Assembly (NCBI GenBank): GCA_964630755.1
Contig: CAZVYS010000001.1
Span: 25,893-89,892, forward strand
Reading direction: 5' to 3'
DNA from: an uncultured Pseudomonadales bacterium
GTDB taxonomy: Bacteria; Patescibacteriota; Microgenomatia; UBA1400; CG1-02-47-37
DNA length: 64,000 nt
The notes below the pieces were generated by a model, which searched no databases, was not told the origin of the DNA, and saw only the letters and a list, made by a program, of their open reading frames with translations. The translations under genes were made by a program, and so were the position numbers. Each line of letters starts with the position of its first letter. Position 1 is the first letter of the stretch. This document shows positions 91 to 36,688 of this stretch, piece by piece.

Positions 91-858
91 GTGAATTTTT
101 GGGTTAAAATCAAACTTAGACATATGGATAAAAAGACAGCTGGTAAGCTAAATCAAATTAATCAAGATTTCTACTTAAAGGTTCAGGAGTATTTTAACAG
201 AACAAGGCAATATTACTGGCGAGGGTTTGAAAAATTACTTCCCTATTTAGCTAACCTTCAGGGAGACTCCCTAAAGGTTCTTGATGTAGCTTGTGGGAAT
301 GGCCGATTTGGAAAGTTTTTAGCAGAAAAGGAAAGAAAGATTAAATACACAGGAATTGATAATAATCAGTATTTGTTAGATCAGGCTCAAAAAGACTTAC
401 CAAAAGCTAAGTTAATAAAACAGGATATTTTTGACAAATGGCAAGTTAAAGATAAATATGAGGTAATTGTTTTATTGGGTATTTTGCACCACATTCCAGG
501 TTTTGAAAATAGAGTAAAAATATTATTAAGAGCTAAAAAGAAATTAAAGAAAAACGGAGTGTTAATTTTTAGTTTATGGAGATTTGATAAGTCAAGAAAA
601 TATACCAGAAGAGTAATTAACTGGGGAGAGTTTAATCAAAATAGTAAGATAAAGATAAATCTAGATGAGCTTGAAAAAGGTGACAAAATAATAGACTGGA
701 AAAGAGGAGCTACAGCTTATCGATATGTGCATGTAACTTCTAAAATAGAGTTGGCTAAAATGATTGATAGGCTTCAAATGACAAAAACAAAAGAATTTTT
801 AGCTGATGGTGAGGAGAACAAGGGAAATAAATACGTTATTTTAAAAGCGGCAGCTTAA
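91..858 (+). CDS. class I SAM-dependent methyltransferase
   Basis: Motif I VLDVACGNGRFG with downstream acidic and hydrophobic motifs. The likelier start is the ATG at 124 (MDKKTAGK). Carries an in-frame palindromic element at 254-278 encoding LQGDSLKV just before motif I. Confidence 0.65.
   Translation: MNFWVKIKLRHMDKKTAGKLNQINQDFYLKVQEYFNRTRQYYWRGFEKLLPYLANLQGDSLKVLDVACGNGRFGKFLAEKERKIKYTGIDNNQYLLDQAQKDLPKAKLIKQDIFDKWQVKDKYEVIVLLGILHHIPGFENRVKILLRAKKKLKKNGVLIFSLWRFDKSRKYTRRVINWGEFNQNSKIKINLDELEKGDKIIDWKRGATAYRYVHVTSKIELAKMIDRLQMTKTKEFLADGEENKGNKYVILKAAA
254..278. repeat. palindromic element copy A (ACCTTCAGGGAGACTCCCTAAAGGT), in-frame in the methyltransferase
   Basis: Imperfect palindrome with a GGAGACTCC core and CCTTCAGG / CCTAAAGG arms. 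Translated as N-LQGDSLKV-L. Confidence 0.7.
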
Positions 859-3373: not shown

Positions 3374-4558
3374 TTATTTAAGTTGTTTTTTGGTGTAGAT
3401 CCAGATTCCGCCCAGGCCTGAAAGCAAAGCTATAAGGCTAACAAAGGCTCCGACTCCAGGAATAAGTTTTAGAAGATAAAGAGCTAGTAAGCCTAAAGAG
3501 AAAGTGACTTGAGGGCTGACTTTTTTCCAGTTTAAATACTTATCAAGAGTGAGGCCAATGGCCATGGCAGTAAATAATTTAGCTAAGCTAAGCTCAATAA
3601 TAAACACCATTGCTAAAATGGCGGCTAAAGGAAAACCTACTCCAGTAATGGCTAATAGCATTAACGCAGGAAAGGTTAATATGACTAAAACTAGTCCCCA
3701 ACCAAGACTTGATAGAAATTTTGATTTAATGTTACCGGCAATAGCTAGGGTTGGTTTTTTTAGTAACCAAAGTAAGACTAAGCCAACAATCAAACTAGAG
3801 AAAAAAGATATTACCTTAAATGCATACTTAGCATTAGACAAATTCTTGTTAAGATTCATTTTGAATTGCTTGTTATTCCATTCGTTTGACTTTGGAGTAT
3901 GGCGTTTTGTTTCACCTAAAATAACAGCCTGATCATCGATCTGAAGATCTTTTTCGGTAGCGTAGGTTAGGTTGCCATTAATAACTGTTTTGGGGCCAAA
4001 ACTTACATCTTCACCACCAATATAGGCTTCGCCGCCAACTGGAGCGTTGTGTTTAAAGTTACCGGCACCAACCATAAGGTTTCTTAAGACTGGAGCTTGA
4101 TTATCAAGCATTCCTGTGCCTGCCAGTAGAGAACCATTTATCTTAGATTGATCATCAACTTTAATAGAACCTGCGCCTACAAGCATGCCGTCACCAATAG
4201 TAGAATCTGTAACAGTTAAATCACCTGCACCAACGACTAAATCATCACCAATTTGACCGTTAATATAGACTTTTCCAGAACCAACGATTAGATCGCCGGT
4301 AATGCTGCCAGAAAAATTAACAACGCCGGCACCAACATAAACATCGCCATCAATAGTGCCAAAGATGTCGACTGTGTCGGCGGCAAGAAATAGATCGTCG
4401 GTGATAACCTCAGATTTTTCGATAACAATGCTGCCTTCGCCTTCTTTTTTAAGAATAACTTTTGCCTGAGTAGTAGAGGCAAAAATAAATAGACTGATAA
4501 ATAGAATAAGAATAATTTTTAGTTTTTTCATATAGATAAAATATACTCTATTTTCCAA
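3374..4558 (-). CDS. membrane protein with an N-terminal signal peptide, Gly-rich beta-helical (bactofilin-like) repeats and a C-terminal four-helix transmembrane domain
   Basis: Repeats of G-x-I/V-x-G-D-L-x-V-G-A-G (GDLIVGSGKVYINGQIGDDLVVGAGDLTV...) followed by about four hydrophobic helices. The likelier start is MKKLKIILILF. Confidence 0.35.
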   Translation of the reverse strand: MENRVYFIYMKKLKIILILFISLFIFASTTQAKVILKKEGEGSIVIEKSEVITDDLFLAADTVDIFGTIDGDVYVGAGVVNFSGSITGDLIVGSGKVYINGQIGDDLVVGAGDLTVTDSTIGDGMLVGAGSIKVDDQSKINGSLLAGTGMLDNQAPVLRNLMVGAGNFKHNAPVGGEAYIGGEDVSFGPKTVINGNLTYATEKDLQIDDQAVILGETKRHTPKSNEWNNKQFKMNLNKNLSNAKYAFKVISFFSSLIVGLVLLWLLKKPTLAIAGNIKSKFLSSLGWGLVLVILTFPALMLLAITGVGFPLAAILAMVFIIELSLAKLFTAMAIGLTLDKYLNWKKVSPQVTFSLGLLALYLLKLIPGVGAFVSLIALLSGLGGIWIYTKKQLK

Positions 4559-7481: not shown

Positions 7482-7985
7482 ATGAAAAATAACTATTCAT
7501 TGTGGGTAGTGCCACCTACAAAGATTAAGCAACAACTAGAAACTGTTATAAATCAGTTGAGTAATGAGTATAATGCGCCCAGATTTGAAGCTCATATGAC
7601 AATTTTAGGAGGATTTGATGAAGAAGAAAAAGAAATGCTTAATAAAGCGCGGCAAATAGCTAAAAAAATAAAACCATTTGTATTGAGCCTAGATAAAGTT
7701 TCTTGCAGTACAACCTATGTTCAAAATGTTTTAGTTAGAGTAACCGTAACCAAAGAAGTACTTGAAGCTAACATGGTGGCAAAAAAAGTAATGAAAAAAG
7801 AAAATGACATGTTTATGCCGCATATTAGCCTAATGTATGGGGATCATACTATGAAAGAAAGAGCTGAGATTGCTTTAAAAATTAATCTACCCAGAGAGAT
7901 ATCATTTGATGTAAGCAAACTGGTGGTAATGGAAACTGGAGCTAATATTGAAAAATGGAAGTGTTTAGACGAGATTTCATTCTGA
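7482..7985 (+). CDS. 2H phosphoesterase superfamily protein (LigT / cyclic phosphodiesterase-like)
   Basis: Two H-x-T/S-x motifs, HMTILGGF and HISLMYG, spaced as in 2'-5' RNA ligase / 2H enzymes. Confidence 0.5.
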   Translation: MKNNYSLWVVPPTKIKQQLETVINQLSNEYNAPRFEAHMTILGGFDEEEKEMLNKARQIAKKIKPFVLSLDKVSCSTTYVQNVLVRVTVTKEVLEANMVAKKVMKKENDMFMPHISLMYGDHTMKERAEIALKINLPREISFDVSKLVVMETGANIEKWKCLDEISF

Positions 7986-8003
7986 CAAGGCCGGGCCTTG
8001 TCA
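7983..8003. terminator. GC-rich perfect hairpin (TGACAAGGCC-G-GGCCTTGTCA) between convergent genes, probably a bidirectional terminator
   Basis: A 10-bp inverted repeat followed by ATTTAATT. Its AAGG/CCTT arms echo the dispersed palindromic element. Confidence 0.35.
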
Positions 8004-8004
8004 T

Positions 8005-8583
8005 TTAATTAGGGATGCAGTTTGGCCAAATGTAGGCTTGGTTAATCGATAAAACATAGGCAGCTGTTCTAGCTGATTCTTTGGCGTTGAAGCGTAAATC
8101 TGGGTTTATGTCTTTATTCATCAAGTTTCTGTAGTGGATCCAAGTGTTGGGAGAAAACTGAAACAAACCAGCATAAGATAAATGCTGAGAACTTGGGTTA
8201 AAATCAGATTCACAGACTGCAATGTGACGAAAAATATGAAGGTCAATATTGTATTCTTTTGCGTATTTTTCAAAAAAACCATGAATTTCTTCGGAGGTGA
8301 ACTCAGGTTGCGGAGATGGACTGGGCCCGGCATTCGCCGGGTAAAGTTTTTTAATATTCTCAGTAGTTTCAGGGGTATTCACCCCTGAGTTATTACTAGT
8401 AGTTTTTTGGACTTTTGGAGAAGGTATGGGTGATGGAGCGGGAAAGTATGATAAGTCAGGAGTGAAGGTAGAAACAGGGTCTAGAAATTCTTGATTTTCT
8501 AATAAATTTTGCTGACTAATAATAACTAAGGGAATAATTACAAAAATAACAAGCTTGAACCAAGATAATGGTTTTTTTAACAT
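8005..8583 (-). CDS. secreted protein with an Rpf-like transglycosylase domain
   Basis: N-terminal transmembrane/signal segment and a Pro/Ser-rich linker. The C-terminus reads CESDFNPSSQHLSYAGLFQFSPNTW...NC, matching the transglycosylase-like (resuscitation-promoting-factor type) CES...GLFQFS..TW motif. Confidence 0.5.
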   Translation of the reverse strand: MLKKPLSWFKLVIFVIIPLVIISQQNLLENQEFLDPVSTFTPDLSYFPAPSPIPSPKVQKTTSNNSGVNTPETTENIKKLYPANAGPSPSPQPEFTSEEIHGFFEKYAKEYNIDLHIFRHIAVCESDFNPSSQHLSYAGLFQFSPNTWIHYRNLMNKDINPDLRFNAKESARTAAYVLSINQAYIWPNCIPN

Positions 8584-10084: not shown

Positions 10085-10903
10085 CTAATCTGCAAGAGGA
10101 ATTGAGTCTTTAAGGCTGAATTTTCCAACTTTAAGACGCTTGATGTTTAAAGCAAGGGCGGGAATATTTAGTTTTTGGCCAATGTTATTAGCTAACGAAC
10201 GCATATAAGTACCAGATGAGCAAGAAATCTTAAGAGTGGCAGTGGAAAAAGTATTAATGGAGTTTTGATTAAAGAATGCTTGCCAAGTCTTTTTAATTTG
10301 GGATTGTCGAAAGTCTCCTTTTACTAGTTTAATTGATTGAAGTATGTGCTTTTTGAGACTAATAGCAGAAATTCTGTTTATTGAAATTAGATTAATAGAG
10401 TTAATGGTGATTTTTCGAGTGGGAATTTTGATTTTATTTAGCTGATTAGTCCGAGCGTAATAGAAAAGCGGCCTACCTTTAACAGTTTTAGATGAATAGG
10501 GTGGATAAACTTGAACTTGAGGACCAATATAGCTTGGTAAAAGACCTTCAAGGTTGGACCTTGAAGGTTGGTGTCTCGAGAGTCTATTTGTTATAGGCTT
10601 AGAAAGCCTACCTTCAAGGTTGGACCTTGAAGGGTGAGAAGGTAGACCAAGAAAGTCGTAAGTGTCGGTGGAGACACCAAAGACAATTGTTAGCTGATAT
10701 GTTTTATCAAGATTAAGATATTGAGCTTTAAGCTTTTCAGTGGGATCAAGAATAATTAACAACACCCCCTCAGCTAAAGGGTCTAGCCGACCAGCATAGG
10801 TAAGTTTTTGATTTATTAGCTCAGGTTTTAGCTGTTGAAGCCTGTTAATGGCTTGAAGAGGCGTAAAACCTACAGGTTTATTTAAGTTGAAAATCTTTGC
10901 CAT
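10085..10903 (-). CDS. truB: tRNA pseudouridine(55) synthase TruB, with an approximately 90-nt in-frame insertion
   Basis: Catalytic motif AGRLDPLAEGVLLI (GxLDxxAxGVL). A PUA-like C-terminus is present. It carries a tandem palindromic-element insertion encoding PSRSNLEG twice. Confidence 0.8.
   Translation of the reverse strand: MAKIFNLNKPVGFTPLQAINRLQQLKPELINQKLTYAGRLDPLAEGVLLIILDPTEKLKAQYLNLDKTYQLTIVFGVSTDTYDFLGLPSHPSRSNLEGRLSKPITNRLSRHQPSRSNLEGLLPSYIGPQVQVYPPYSSKTVKGRPLFYYARTNQLNKIKIPTRKITINSINLISINRISAISLKKHILQSIKLVKGDFRQSQIKKTWQAFFNQNSINTFSTATLKISCSSGTYMRSLANNIGQKLNIPALALNIKRLKVGKFSLKDSIPLAD
10544..10634. repeat. tandem pair of palindromic elements (ACCTTCAAGGTTGGACCTTGAAGG, twice) with a palindromic spacer, inside truB
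   Basis: Copies at 10544-10568 and 10610-10634. The spacer contains CTCGAGAG and AGGCTTAGAAAGCCT palindromes. In-frame with no stop. Confidence 0.7.
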
Positions 10904-19144: not shown

Positions 19145-19171
19145 AGCCTACGAGGAGAGTCCTTGTAGGCT
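19145..19171. repeat. palindromic element copy (AGCCTACGAGGAGAGTCCTTGTAGGCT) abutting the recJ stop codon
   Basis: Inverted repeat with a GGAGAGTCC core; overlaps the TAA of recJ (19171-19173). Confidence 0.6.
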
Positions 19172-20856
19172 TAGGTCATGAGAACTGTTTTGACTTTTAG
19201 TTGGAGGGATTTTTGGTTGTTCCAGACGTTTTTATCGAGAGTGTAGACAAGATCAATTGGTTGATTTTCTGATAAGTCTTTGGCTAGATAGCCGTGGTTA
19301 AAAGCAATGGCATTTACCTTCAAGGAGTCTCCCTGTAGGCTTAATTTAAGATGTTTTTGGTCTTGGCCGACGGTGCGAAAACTAGCTAAAGAGACTTTTT
19401 TAGAAATAAAGACTGGCCGAGGATTGCCAAAACCAAAGGGGCGTAGTTTTTCAAGGTCATCATATAATTCCCAGTTAATGTCAGAAAGATTAAGCTCTAG
19501 GTCAACCTCTAGGATTGGAGTGAGTTGTCTTTCTGTTAGTTGCTTTTCAGCTAAAGCAGTTAATTTTTTCTTCACTTTTTCAAGATTTTGATTTGCAACC
19601 GTAAAGCCAGCAGCCATTGGGTGACCGCCGTGTTCAAGTAAGTCTTTTTCAATAGATCTAATATTTTTAATGGCATTAAAGCCTTTAATCGACCTAATTG
19701 AAGCTTTGGAAGTGTTTTTGCCAAGAGCGACTACAATGCTAGGTCGATGATATTTTTCAGCCAAGCGACTGGCAACTAGACCAACTAAACCTTCATGAAA
19801 AGTTTTGTCTGCTACGAAAATGAGCTTTGGCATTTGATTTTGATTTAGCTTGGAGACTTTGTTGGTAATGTTTTTGGCATGAAAGTACATATCTAGAGTT
19901 TGGGTTTGACGAGTCTGATTGGTAAGGTTCACGGTTTGGGCTAGTTTTTTAGCCTTGTTATTATCGGTGGTGCAAAGTAACCTCAATGAATCTAGGGCAT
20001 GAGATAAACGCCCCATGGCGTTAAGCCGAGGACCAATAACAAAACTGGCCTGATAGGCTTCAAGGTCTTGGAGTTTAAAACCAGCTTCATCAGCTAGAGC
20101 AATTAGACCGGGTCTTTTAGAACTTTGAAGTTTTTTTAAACCAAATTTAGCAATAGAGCGATTTATACCCACTAAAGGCATCATGTCAGCAATAGAACCA
20201 AGGGCAACTAAACTTAAGTGTTGAGGGATATTTTTAAGAAGCTTTGAAATCTGCCAAGCAACGCCAACGCCAGCTAGCTTAGTAGAGTGAACGATGGAGT
20301 GAGCTTTGGGAAGTTTATTACCCTTTGGTTGATGGTGGTCAGAGATAATAACTTCAATGCCTAGTCTATTGGCATAATCCACTCCTTTAAAGGCCGAGAT
20401 ACCGTTGTCAACGGTGATGATAAGATCGGGCTTTTTCTTTTTTAAAGAAATAATCTCGTCAATGCCCTGAGGAGATAAACCGCGGATTTTATCATCTCGG
20501 GGTGGAATATATGGTAAAGCATTAGCTTTTAATTGATAAAGTGTTTCCCACAAAACAGCGGTGGCGGTTACTCCATCAGCGTCAAAATCTCCGTAAATAA
20601 AGATCAGTTCTTTATTTTTAATAGCTTTTTTAATTCTTGTAACTGCTTTTTTGAGTTGAGTTGAATTAATTTCTAAGTCTTTAGGGGAAAAGTTGATTGG
20701 ATTTTCTGGGCTTAAAAATTGGTTTTGGAGTTTTTTGGATATAAGACCTCTGTTAATTAATAAAGCCTGGATGATTTCCTGGCGGCGTTTATTGAGACTT
20801 TTAGTTTTTAGTTTAGATTTTATTTTTATCTTTTTATCCATAAGAGATATAATCAT
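19171..20856 (-). CDS. recJ: single-stranded-DNA-specific exonuclease RecJ
   Basis: DHH family motifs (GDFDADGVT, ...IISDHH) and a DHHA1-like C-terminal region. Carries an in-frame palindromic element near the C-terminus (LSLQGDSLKVNAI). Confidence 0.8.
   Translation of the reverse strand: MIISLMDKKIKIKSKLKTKSLNKRRQEIIQALLINRGLISKKLQNQFLSPENPINFSPKDLEINSTQLKKAVTRIKKAIKNKELIFIYGDFDADGVTATAVLWETLYQLKANALPYIPPRDDKIRGLSPQGIDEIISLKKKKPDLIITVDNGISAFKGVDYANRLGIEVIISDHHQPKGNKLPKAHSIVHSTKLAGVGVAWQISKLLKNIPQHLSLVALGSIADMMPLVGINRSIAKFGLKKLQSSKRPGLIALADEAGFKLQDLEAYQASFVIGPRLNAMGRLSHALDSLRLLCTTDNNKAKKLAQTVNLTNQTRQTQTLDMYFHAKNITNKVSKLNQNQMPKLIFVADKTFHEGLVGLVASRLAEKYHRPSIVVALGKNTSKASIRSIKGFNAIKNIRSIEKDLLEHGGHPMAAGFTVANQNLEKVKKKLTALAEKQLTERQLTPILEVDLELNLSDINWELYDDLEKLRPFGFGNPRPVFISKKVSLASFRTVGQDQKHLKLSLQGDSLKVNAIAFNHGYLAKDLSENQPIDLVYTLDKNVWNNQKSLQLKVKTVLMT
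19316..19341. repeat. palindromic element copy (ACCTTCAAGGAGTCTCCCTGTAGGCT), in-frame in recJ
   Basis: GGAGTCTCC core; encodes LQGDSLKV on the minus strand. Confidence 0.7.
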
Positions 20857-21667: not shown

Positions 21668-23041
21668 ATGAAAATTAAGCTTCCAGGGCCAGTAAAAAAA
21701 GTAATTAAAGTGGTAGAAAAAGCAGGCTTTGAAATATATATAGTTGGAGGGGCGGTTAGAGATATATTAACTGGTAAAGAAGTTAAAGATTGGGACCTAA
21801 CCACAAATGCAAAGCCTGAAGAGATAACTAAGTTATTTAAAGACTCGTTTTATGATAATGATTTTGGCACAGTGGGGATAGCTGAAAAGCACTTGGGAGG
21901 TAAGGATGAGGGAGTTTTAGAGATTACTACCTTTCGAACTGAATCAAGTTATTCTGACTCTAGACGCCCTGATAAAGTTAAGTGGGGTAAAAGTTTAGAT
22001 GAGGATTTAACTAGACGAGATTTTACTATCAATGCCATGGCAATAAAAATCTCCAGCCTACAAGGATCATCCTTAAAGGTTGAGATAATCGACCCATTTA
22101 AAGGACAAAAGGATTTAGAAAAAAGATTAATTAGGGCGGTTGGTGACCCAGATAAGCGGTTTAAAGAAGATGCTTTAAGAATGATGAGGGCGATTAGAAT
22201 CGCAGCAGAACTTGGTTTTACCATTGAAGCTAAGACCTTAAAAGCGATTAGCACGGATGCTAGATTACTAAAAAAAATTGCCAAAGAAAGGGTTCGAGAT
22301 GAGTTGCTTAAGATTATTGTTTCAAAATTTCCTAAAGATGGAGTGACTTTGTTATATACCAGCGGACTACTACAATTTATTATTCCAGAGTTAATTGAAA
22401 CTCGAGAAGTTGAACAAGCTGGGCATCATACTAAAGATGTATGGAACCATAGTTTAGACGCGATGGCTAACTGTCCTTCGCCTGATCCAATTATTCGCCT
22501 TGCTACCCTACTCCATGATGTTGGCAAACCAAGGTCAAAAAGAAATCGAGGTAAAGGCAAAGAAATTACTTTTTACAATCATGAAGTGATTGGGGCCAGG
22601 ATGGTAAAAGATATTGCCAGGAGACTAAAGATGAGTAAAAAAGAAATAGACTTACTCTGGTTACTGGTGCGCTGGCATATGTTTGCTTATGAACCCAAGA
22701 TGACAGACAAAGCGATTCGAAGATTTATTAAACGAGTCTCGTTAGAAAATATTAATAAAATGATGATGCTTAGGATTGGAGACCGGATTGGCGGGGGTAG
22801 TAAAGCTACTTCCTGGAGATTAAGAGAATTACAACAACGAATTGGTGAAGTGCTTTATACGCCGATGCAGATAAAAGACTTAAAAGTATCTGGTCACGAT
22901 GTAATGAAGATAAAAAAAATTAAAGGTGGGCCAGAGATTGGAAAAATTTTAGAAAAGCTGTTTGATGAAGTAATGGAAGATAGTAGCAAAAACAACAGAA
23001 AGTATCTTTTAAAACGGATTAAAGAAATAAATCCAAAATAA
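21668..23041 (+). CDS. cca: tRNA nucleotidyltransferase (CCA-adding enzyme / poly(A) polymerase family) with an HD domain
   Basis: IVGGAVRDILTG...DWDLTT polymerase-beta head motif; HD domain (LLHDVGK). In-frame palindromic element encoding SSLQGSSLKVEI. Confidence 0.75.
   Translation: MKIKLPGPVKKVIKVVEKAGFEIYIVGGAVRDILTGKEVKDWDLTTNAKPEEITKLFKDSFYDNDFGTVGIAEKHLGGKDEGVLEITTFRTESSYSDSRRPDKVKWGKSLDEDLTRRDFTINAMAIKISSLQGSSLKVEIIDPFKGQKDLEKRLIRAVGDPDKRFKEDALRMMRAIRIAAELGFTIEAKTLKAISTDARLLKKIAKERVRDELLKIIVSKFPKDGVTLLYTSGLLQFIIPELIETREVEQAGHHTKDVWNHSLDAMANCPSPDPIIRLATLLHDVGKPRSKRNRGKGKEITFYNHEVIGARMVKDIARRLKMSKKEIDLLWLLVRWHMFAYEPKMTDKAIRRFIKRVSLENINKMMMLRIGDRIGGGSKATSWRLRELQQRIGEVLYTPMQIKDLKVSGHDVMKIKKIKGGPEIGKILEKLFDEVMEDSSKNNRKYLLKRIKEINPK
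22055..22080. repeat. palindromic element copy (AGCCTACAAGGATCATCCTTAAAGGT), in-frame in cca
   Basis: CCTACAAGG / CCTTAAAGG arms with a GGATCATCC core. Confidence 0.65.
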
Positions 23042-35740: not shown

Positions 35741-36688
35741 CTATTTAGTATACCAAGACTTTAGTTGAGTGACTACTATTTGAGGATAGTTATGACTATT
35801 GATATTAAACCATTTAATGTAGGGTTTTTTATGAAACCAAGTTATTTGGCGACGAAGATATTGTTTTTCAGCTGTTGTCCAGGATTTAATAACTTTATCT
35901 ATGTTAATATTTTTCTTAAAATAAGGCTGCCATTGTTTATATCCCATGGCTGACATAGACGGTAAATTCCAAGAATAGCCAGCTTTGATTAGTGATTCAA
36001 CTTCTGCTTTGGAATTAGCGCTAATTCTATCAAGAACTCTTTTCTCAACTCTATTATCTAAGTTTTTTTTATTAGCAGTTAAACCAACCCAAAATTGATC
36101 AGATTCTGCAAGATTCAGTCTTTTTGTTTTCTTAACCTTCAAGGTCGGACCCTTAAGGTTAATTTCGATAGCCCGAATTAGTCGACGTGGATTATGTTGA
36201 TCAGAATGATTCATTTTTTGATATTTATCAAAATCTAGTTTTTTTAGTTTTTTTTGAAGACTGAGAACATTTAATTTACTTAACTGCTGGCGTAAAACTT
36301 GGTTAGCAGGAATGGCAATGGTGTTTAGTGGTTTTGTTAAAGCCTGAAGATACAAACCAGTACCGCCAACAAGAATAGGCAATTCTCTGGCAGTCCAAAT
36401 CTTTTTAATTCTAGGGATAGCAAAGTTTATAAAATGAGCGACAGAAAAATCCTGATTTGGTTTAACTAAATCGTAACCCCAGACTTTAATTTTTTTGATT
36501 AAATAATGTCCATCTTTATATTGTTTAGCTTTTTGAGGTAAATCTTTGCCTGTGCCAATATCCATTCCTTTATAAACTTGACGAGAATCAGCTGAGATAA
36601 TCTGACCTGAAAAGATCTTACTTAATTTTAAAGCCAAATTGGTTTTGCCAGTGGCAGTTGAACCACAAATAATTAGAAGTTTTTTCAT
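35741..36688 (-). CDS. miaA: tRNA dimethylallyltransferase MiaA (with an in-frame palindromic element)
   Basis: P-loop LLIICGSTATGKT, DSRQVYKGMDIGT. The element encodes INLKGPTLKVKK. Confidence 0.8.
   Translation of the reverse strand: MKKLLIICGSTATGKTNLALKLSKIFSGQIISADSRQVYKGMDIGTGKDLPQKAKQYKDGHYLIKKIKVWGYDLVKPNQDFSVAHFINFAIPRIKKIWTARELPILVGGTGLYLQALTKPLNTIAIPANQVLRQQLSKLNVLSLQKKLKKLDFDKYQKMNHSDQHNPRRLIRAIEINLKGPTLKVKKTKRLNLAESDQFWVGLTANKKNLDNRVEKRVLDRISANSKAEVESLIKAGYSWNLPSMSAMGYKQWQPYFKKNINIDKVIKSWTTAEKQYLRRQITWFHKKPYIKWFNINSHNYPQIVVTQLKSWYTK
36133..36159. repeat. palindromic element copy (AACCTTCAAGGTCGGACCCTTAAGGTT), in-frame in miaA
   Basis: CCTTCAAGG / CCTTAAGG arms with a GGTCGGACC core. 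Confidence 0.65.

Follow-up and report, generated by a model that had tools for sequence, protein, structure and literature searches.

Probable REP-type repeats translated within truB of a CPR bacterium, and a Y1 transposase linked to the same hairpin in relatives

Rickettsia palindromic elements (RPEs), reportedly described by Ogata and colleagues in 2000, resemble the element analysed here in being selfish palindromic DNA that lies in frame and is translated within essential genes of a reduced genome. RPE-1 is about 100–150 bp long, compared with 25 nt for the unit described below, whose host, an ultra-small bacterium of the candidate phyla radiation (CPR), is of an unrelated lineage, and we know of no transposase associated with RPEs.

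Intragenic REPs carrying a GTAG or CGTC tag are also known, more than half of them as dimers or groups that encode 20–30 aa (Di Nocera et al. 2013, PMC3733652). The gene truB is among their hosts, with a dimer at amino acids 164–190 in Erythrobacter litoralis and single copies in S. alaskensis and S. maltophilia, and the same paper recalls that R. conorii truB is interrupted by RPE-1 (PMC3733652). REP/RAYT systems, REPtrons and REPINs are well described (Nunvar 2010, PMC2817692; Bertels and Rainey 2011, PMC3116915), and BIMEs are made up of REPs that alternate in orientation and are joined by defined linker motifs (PMC2817692). Intragenic REP dimers, including those in truB, have been known since 2013; no papers on REP/RAYT in CPR were found in the searched literature.

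We analysed a stretch of 64,000 nt with a G+C content of 35.5 % (the window), in which two copies of a short hairpin lie within truB. The doublet is most likely made up of translated copies of a REP-type element that is linked to a transposase in relatives, a reading to which we assign a probability of roughly 0.8. Like the REPs of Di Nocera et al. (PMC3733652), the hairpins are short palindromes in frame within genes, form a dimer in truB, one of the hosts shared with those REPs, and are linked to a tyrosine transposase. They differ in lacking the GTAG or CGTC tag, in being perfect, 25 nt long and resident in a low-GC CPR genome, in occupying another site of TruB, in having about half of their copies inside ORFs rather than a small minority, and in persisting at an identical codon among orthologs that share about 55 % of their residues.

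The doublet and the protein that carries it

The gene and the parts of the doublet are located in the window as follows.

10085–10903, minus strand: truB ORF (272 aa), tRNA pseudouridine-55 synthase, host of the repeats, assigned by its TruB_N match and structure model
10544–10568, no strand: REP copy 1, the further downstream of the two in truB, ACCTTCAAGGT-TGG-ACCTTGAAGGT, with an 11-bp stem and a 3-nt loop; encodes P113–G120 (PSRSNLEG), the start of helix 115–125
10569–10609, minus strand: unique spacer, encodes RLSKPITNRLSRHQ; contains CTCGAG and most of the 7-bp hairpin at 10594–10610
10610–10633, no strand: REP copy 2, the further upstream of the two in truB, matching copy 1 at all 24 nt, with a 10-bp stem at 10611–10633; encodes P91–G98 (PSRSNLEG) in a low-confidence loop

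The sequence ACCTTCAAGGTTGGACCTTGAAGG was found exactly at 10544–10567 and 10610–10633, with no matches in shuffled sequence, so the two near-identical copies recognized in an earlier note on this DNA are real. Their starts are 66 nt, or 22 codons, apart. The spacer between the 24-mers had been described as palindromic and 41 nt long; its length is 42 nt, and the palindromic character holds in the form of CTCGAG and the 7-bp hairpin TAGGCTT-aga-AAGCCTA at 10594–10610. The peptide HPSRSNLEGRLSKPITNRLSRHQPSRSNLEGLL had been read correctly from the 272-aa ORF on the minus strand, and the reading of the segment as a double palindromic element that looks foreign, translated in the frame of an essential and otherwise conserved gene, is supported.

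The doublet region folds as RNA at −41.7 kcal/mol (z = −5.8), with separate hairpins in the minimum-free-energy structure and the loops of both copies in the same orientation. With separate hairpins, loops in one orientation and a unique spacer, the doublet is not a REPIN. It resembles a BIME in combining two REPs with a short linker, but BIMEs are extragenic; the truB unit is coding throughout, its copies are in direct orientation and its spacer is unique. No repeat of the spacer was detected outside truB in any fetched locus except on contigs of the same organism, and no composite of REP, spacer and REP was found elsewhere in the fetched loci.

The truB ORF matches TruB_N in Pfam (E=3.4e-25) and TruB in NCBIfam (E=5.8e-37, below the equivalog cut-off), and the GRLDP motif, which holds the catalytic Asp, is invariant. 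The AlphaFold2 model, built with 120 orthologs, has a mean pLDDT of 93; its best Foldseek match is E. coli TruB (1k8w, E=8.5e-19), with T. maritima TruB also among the best, and both catalytic domain and fold are those of TruB. The earlier note had located the element between a catalytic and a PUA region. A Pfam search of the window TruB returned the catalytic TruB_N domain only and detected no C-terminal PUA domain, and the repeat site lies inside TruB_N, between the GxxTDTxDxxG motif and the helix preceding YPPYSS.

In the model, pLDDT is about 54 for residues 91–110, a segment made up of the upstream repeat and the greater part of the spacer, while the downstream repeat, P113–G120, opens the confident helix 115–125 with pLDDT above 90. 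The expectation of a solvent-exposed loop probably holds for one part only: the upstream copy and the spacer form a loop of low model confidence that is presumably flexible and exposed, and the downstream copy sits in a confident helix. The stretch from DxxDxxG to YPPY is 46 aa long in the window compared with mostly 29–34 aa among 105 CPR orthologs, and 29 aa in ortholog P0010. By sequence comparison the net gain is about 14–17 aa, in place of the 30 or so suggested at first, and the downstream copy occupies the native helix start.

Elsewhere in the protein, as in its CPR relatives, residues ~180–213 form two extra helices, 180–193 and 200–213, with an invariant GDFRQ motif, and we know of no counterpart to them in E. 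coli or T. maritima TruB. A TruB of ~255–270 aa lacking the PUA domain is common to the window and its CPR relatives.

Several other candidates for the truB segment were considered and rejected. An intrinsic terminator received no flag in a terminator scan, and a conserved U-tract following the hairpin is absent in the orthologs. A T-arm mimic for TruB autoregulation was discarded on reading the sequence, in which no T-loop-like stem-loop fits. Tandem duplication of a 66-nt unit was likewise set aside, the shared part being the 24-nt hairpin only. At gathering thresholds Rfam gave no match for the doublet, its only hits being two tRNAs.

A dispersed hairpin family and its Y1 transposase

The family unit is ACCTTCAAGGT-NNN-ACCTTGAAGGT, 25 nt with an 11-bp stem and a 3-nt loop. 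Allowing up to three mismatches, the window holds seven copies or remnants against an expectation of 0, five of them outside truB. The density is modest, about one per 9 kb, and below that of classical REPs (more than 100 copies per genome). The copies outside truB are the following.

255–277, no strand: decayed REP-like hairpin CCTTCAGGGagactCCCTAAAGG in a methyltransferase ORF (91–858, plus strand); peptide NLQGDSLKV, just before motif I
19147–19169, no strand: REP-like hairpin CCTACGAGGagagtCCTTGTAGG in the short intergenic stretch directly 3' of recJ, from the hairpin scan
19317–19339, no strand: decayed REP-like hairpin in recJ (19171–20856, minus strand), in the OB-fold beta-hairpin; peptide LSLQGDSLKV
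22057–22079, no strand: decayed REP-like hairpin in a putative CCA-adding enzyme (cca) ORF (21668–23041, plus strand), named from reading the translation (TINAM..DPF motif region); peptide SSLQGSSLKV
36136–36158, no strand: decayed REP-like hairpin in miaA (35741–36688, minus strand); peptide NLKGPTLKV

The recJ site is occupied by a REP or a remnant at the same position in three of the four orthologs examined (L115, L125 and L126); the fourth, L127, is too diverged for detection by DNA scan. Three of the five host genes in the window, truB included, act on tRNA, which may simply follow from the set of genes that a reduced genome retains. The window also contains a G+C-rich perfect hairpin at 7983–8003, TGACAAGGC-cgg-GCCTTGTCA, directly 3' of an ORF at 8005–8583 (minus strand), which is probably a terminator unrelated to the REP family.

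Beyond the window, the pattern CCTTCAAGGN5CCTTGAAGG was found at 114 or more loci of species-representative genomes, many of them from Ca. Beckwithbacteria, Collierbacteria and other CPR, and in some cases the pattern search returned matches on several contigs of a single MAG. The exact 24-mer was present at 15 further loci in metagenomes, and one 442-kb contig carried at least five exact copies. Compensatory arm changes are strongly enriched among the variant hairpins: fully paired arms were observed in 5 of 25 variant copies against 2 % under the null, in 13 of 21 against 6 % and in 3 of 18 against 0.1 %.

The family shares with REPs, which are 20–40 nt long, the short stem-loop palindrome and the dispersal, and departs from them in location and in the tag. 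Six of the seven window copies lie in ORFs, and among 50 copies in CPR loci, 25 were inside long ORFs, seven over a 3' end, two over a 5' end and 16 seemingly intergenic, counts that are approximate owing to the duplication of some loci between collections. Two of the three reading frames of the hairpin are open on either strand (PSRxxLEG and LQGxxLKV), and the third contains TGA. Among 24 unique oriented copies there was no GTAG or CGTC tag, conserved flank or target site; the only positions conserved next to the hairpin were A at −1 and T at +1, which extend the stem. GTAG occurs only in some variant arms, CCTTGTAGG.

The hairpin was also found in TPA assemblies of 40–51 % G+C labelled 'uncultured Pseudomonadales' (L002, L006, L014, L016, L022–L024, L026 and L031, and further L035, L036, L039, L044, L046, L047, L049, L052, L061, L064, L072, L076 and L077), whose proteins showed weak similarity to those of the window. 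Either the label of these MAGs is doubtful or the system spans phyla. In five of them (L023, L024, L052, L076 and L077) the transposase described next is ~50–58 % identical to that of Beckwithbacteria.

In relatives, the hairpin family is tied to an IS200/RAYT-like Y1 tyrosine transposase of the HUH type. In the Beckwithbacteria locus L027 (34 % G+C, with the TTGGA centre seen in the window), four hairpins surround and penetrate a 233-aa ORF at 171–872 on the minus strand. The two that flank the ORF have opposite loop orientation and two further hairpins lie inside it. The encoded protein matches Pfam Y1_Tnp (E=5.9e-9, 36.5 bits, passing the cut-off of 23); its sole NCBIfam match is the REP-associated tyrosine transposase NF047646 (E=3.1e-9, 36.9 bits against a cut-off of 80), and it contains the HUH (NHYHIL) and YIHRNP motifs. 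Homologs of this transposase were present in 17 of the 114 loci, which had been fetched by the hairpin pattern alone, and in L027 and 16 other loci a Y1 HUH gene is flanked by inverted REPs, as in a REPtron. The HUH (PNHxH) and YIHRNP motifs are invariant among the homologs. In a single-sequence search against the PDB the L027 transposase found no match, while a profile of 12 homologs matched ISDra2 TnpA (2xm3, E=0.006) across the HUH and tyrosine motifs; solved RAYT structures showed no sequence match to the transposase, the profile included. No transposase gene was found in the 64-kb window itself.

The hairpins hold conserved positions at the transposase loci, namely at the gene start, ~180 and ~500 nt inside the gene and just beyond its 3' end. 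Their central bases are identical within one locus, and this per-locus repeat flavour suggests co-evolution with the transposase. The arrangement resembles REP/RAYT systems in that a hairpin family accompanies a single Y1 transposase gene flanked by repeats in the CPR relatives; it differs in that the transposase is divergent, the repeats are mostly intragenic and some lie inside the transposase ORF, which is unusual for REPtrons. Two internal hairpins of the transposase ORF were seen in L027, L017, L021, L023, L024, L032, L052, L065, L073, L075, L076, L077, L099 and L103, and are translated as DLQGxxLKV and PSRxxLEG. In some transposase orthologs the second internal site instead reads TFKDSPCKL, a product of the third frame in which TGC replaces TGA. 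In L131, the hairpins at 4529, 4736 and 5247 around one transposase locus share a single variant arm, CCTTGTAGG, which creates GTAG, suggesting that copies within one locus have been homogenized.

Retention and decay in truB orthologs

The nine closest truB orthologs, at 53–58 % identity, show the synteny truB-thyA-folA; the protein database held no truB relatives between 58 and 100 % identity. In all nine the hairpin stands at an identical codon and in an identical frame (CAA CCT TCA AGG TCC RAC CTT GAA GGT), just before (V/I/L)LPxFIG, with loops that vary between cca, ccg, tgg and acaga. The motif is absent from orthologs below ~50 % identity. For pairs of identical residues, restricted to amino acids with at least four codons, the codon was identical in 167 of 191 cases (87 %) within the hairpin compared with 1393 of 3768 (37 %) in the rest of the gene, which indicates that the truB hairpin is maintained at the nucleotide level.

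The upstream copy is less uniform. The window has it intact, P0002, P0005 and P0007 have it in slightly decayed form and P0010 lacks it; P0004 and P0009 have a variant, CCTGCAAGG…, that is compensated apart from a single mismatch or G-T pair remaining in its other arm. In each of P0003, P0007 and P0008 one copy is split by a loop insertion of ~21 nt, upstream in P0003 and downstream in P0007. Ortholog P0002 has in common with the window both the 66-nt period and a homologous spacer (KPIT..S.HQ), in which the middle hairpin is not conserved. It follows from the shared period and spacer that the doublet is old, and the notion of a recent insertion had to be given up, the hairpin standing at the same codon in every close ortholog. 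In P0006 (L124:1304) the loop of the orthologous hairpin is flipped, tgg in place of cca, with the stem intact, which would fit either an arm-to-arm inversion or a re-insertion the other way round.

In P0010, which has a single hairpin, the linker has the canonical length of 23 residues from G to G, by our own count on T. maritima and E. coli TruB. What the downstream copy encodes is therefore the normal start of the helix and not extra sequence, and in the alignment its peptide falls on that native start (consensus LE..L..F.G).

The contrast in codon identity across orthologs that are only ~55 % identical would also be expected if the hairpin were a functional nucleic-acid element of truB, acting in mRNA stability, translation pausing or protein binding, with its dispersed likeness secondary. 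The stable fold (z = −5.8) and the concentration of decay in the upstream copy point the same way. Yet this hairpin is also seen in unrelated genes, between genes and, in many genomes, around a transposase gene, its loop and central bases differ among the orthologs, up to the flipped loop of P0006, and there is neither an Rfam match at gathering thresholds nor a conserved U-tract or terminator flag. We consider this explanation unlikely.

Selection could instead have acted on the protein, the doublet being a native linker with a protein-level repeat (PSRSNLEG twice) that arose by tandem duplication and was retained for TruB function. Such a linker would fit the downstream peptide, which aligns with the native helix start and is confidently modelled, and the sharing of the peptide by close orthologs. 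At the DNA level the fit is lost: the 24-nt hairpin alone is duplicated, the 42-nt spacer matches neither flank, the copies are identical in DNA and their codon usage is frozen far beyond amino-acid need. The same 23–25 nt moreover appear in other genes in a different frame (LQG..LKV), and the motif is absent in more distant orthologs, so that we regard a native linker as highly improbable. The earlier note had proposed that identical strains and homologs of equivalent length would mark a native linker; strains are indeed identical and close homologs share the element, but the nucleotide-level evidence and the dispersed copies identify it as a repeat element.

A degenerate CRISPR-like unit or array remnant captured in the gene, suggested by the superficial geometry of two 24-nt repeats on either side of a unique 42-nt spacer, deserves next to no credence, and the earlier note had likewise seen the likeness as one at first sight. 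An array has three or more regular direct repeats in non-coding DNA, whereas here two perfect palindromes lie in an intact ORF, singletons occur in other genes, a Y1 transposase accompanies the family and none of the fetched loci showed an array of the repeat. Palindromes and repeats can cause misassembly, but an assembly or chimera artefact is hardly conceivable here, because four independent metagenome assemblies from different samples agree on this DNA at 99.9–100 % identity, the frame is intact and orthologs share the feature.

Origin and upkeep of the truB copies

If the doublet derives from a REP-type element, as we prefer to read it, the linker of truB that joins the TDTxD motif to the next helix would have received a hairpin copy in the ancestor of the clade. 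The second copy and the unique 42-nt spacer would have been acquired afterwards, before the lineages of the window and P0002 parted. Survival of the copies would be favoured by two of the three frames being open on either strand and by a site that tolerates extra residues. As has been proposed for REP/RAYT, the Y1 transposase may mobilize the hairpins in the form of single-stranded DNA, or may formerly have done so. We infer this mobilization, the order of events and the mechanism of maintenance. No empty truB site was found among close relatives, and since the 25-nt unit is not a multiple of three, the insertion event itself cannot be reconstructed.

The hairpins may be kept up by re-copying or gene conversion from other genomic copies, possibly dependent on the transposase, or by selection on the hairpin. 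Conversion is favoured, though not settled, because the repeat flavour is shared within each transposase locus and the three L131 copies have the same variant arm. That the downstream copy is perfectly conserved could be due to a role of the hairpin within truB instead of repeat dynamics.

A broader proposal, which we offer tentatively as possible but doubtful, is that REP hairpins are long-lived residents at orthologous intragenic sites, held there through concerted evolution by transposase-dependent re-copying. Coding sequence of essential genes, such as the start of a TruB helix, would then be continually rewritten from a mobile template, and the element would be co-opted within genes as protein-coding material or as a nucleic-acid signal.

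With the REP-type reading, an odd repeat in an essential gene is explained as ordinary selfish DNA, and its domain assignment has been corrected. A REP/Y1-transposase system is present in Microgenomates-group CPR bacteria, and the peptides PSRSNLEG and LQGxxLKV can serve as annotation markers of repeat-derived segments. The codon-frozen hairpins in the orthologs offer a tractable case for REP maintenance.

The same linker is lengthened in many CPR TruB orthologs that are more distantly related, with extra peptides, for example VIARSE…TKQS…RLPRS…ARND and CHPRECGDPG, that are typical of other palindromic repeats. The truB linker at L144:6275–6377 contains a 103-nt element with perfect 13-nt terminal inverted repeats, ACGTCATTGCGAG…CTCGCAATGACGT, and a folding energy of −44 kcal/mol, and that at L145:6363–6479 contains a hairpin with 30-nt arms, both elements being unrelated to the window hairpin. 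The truB linker thus looks like a recurrent permissive hotspot.
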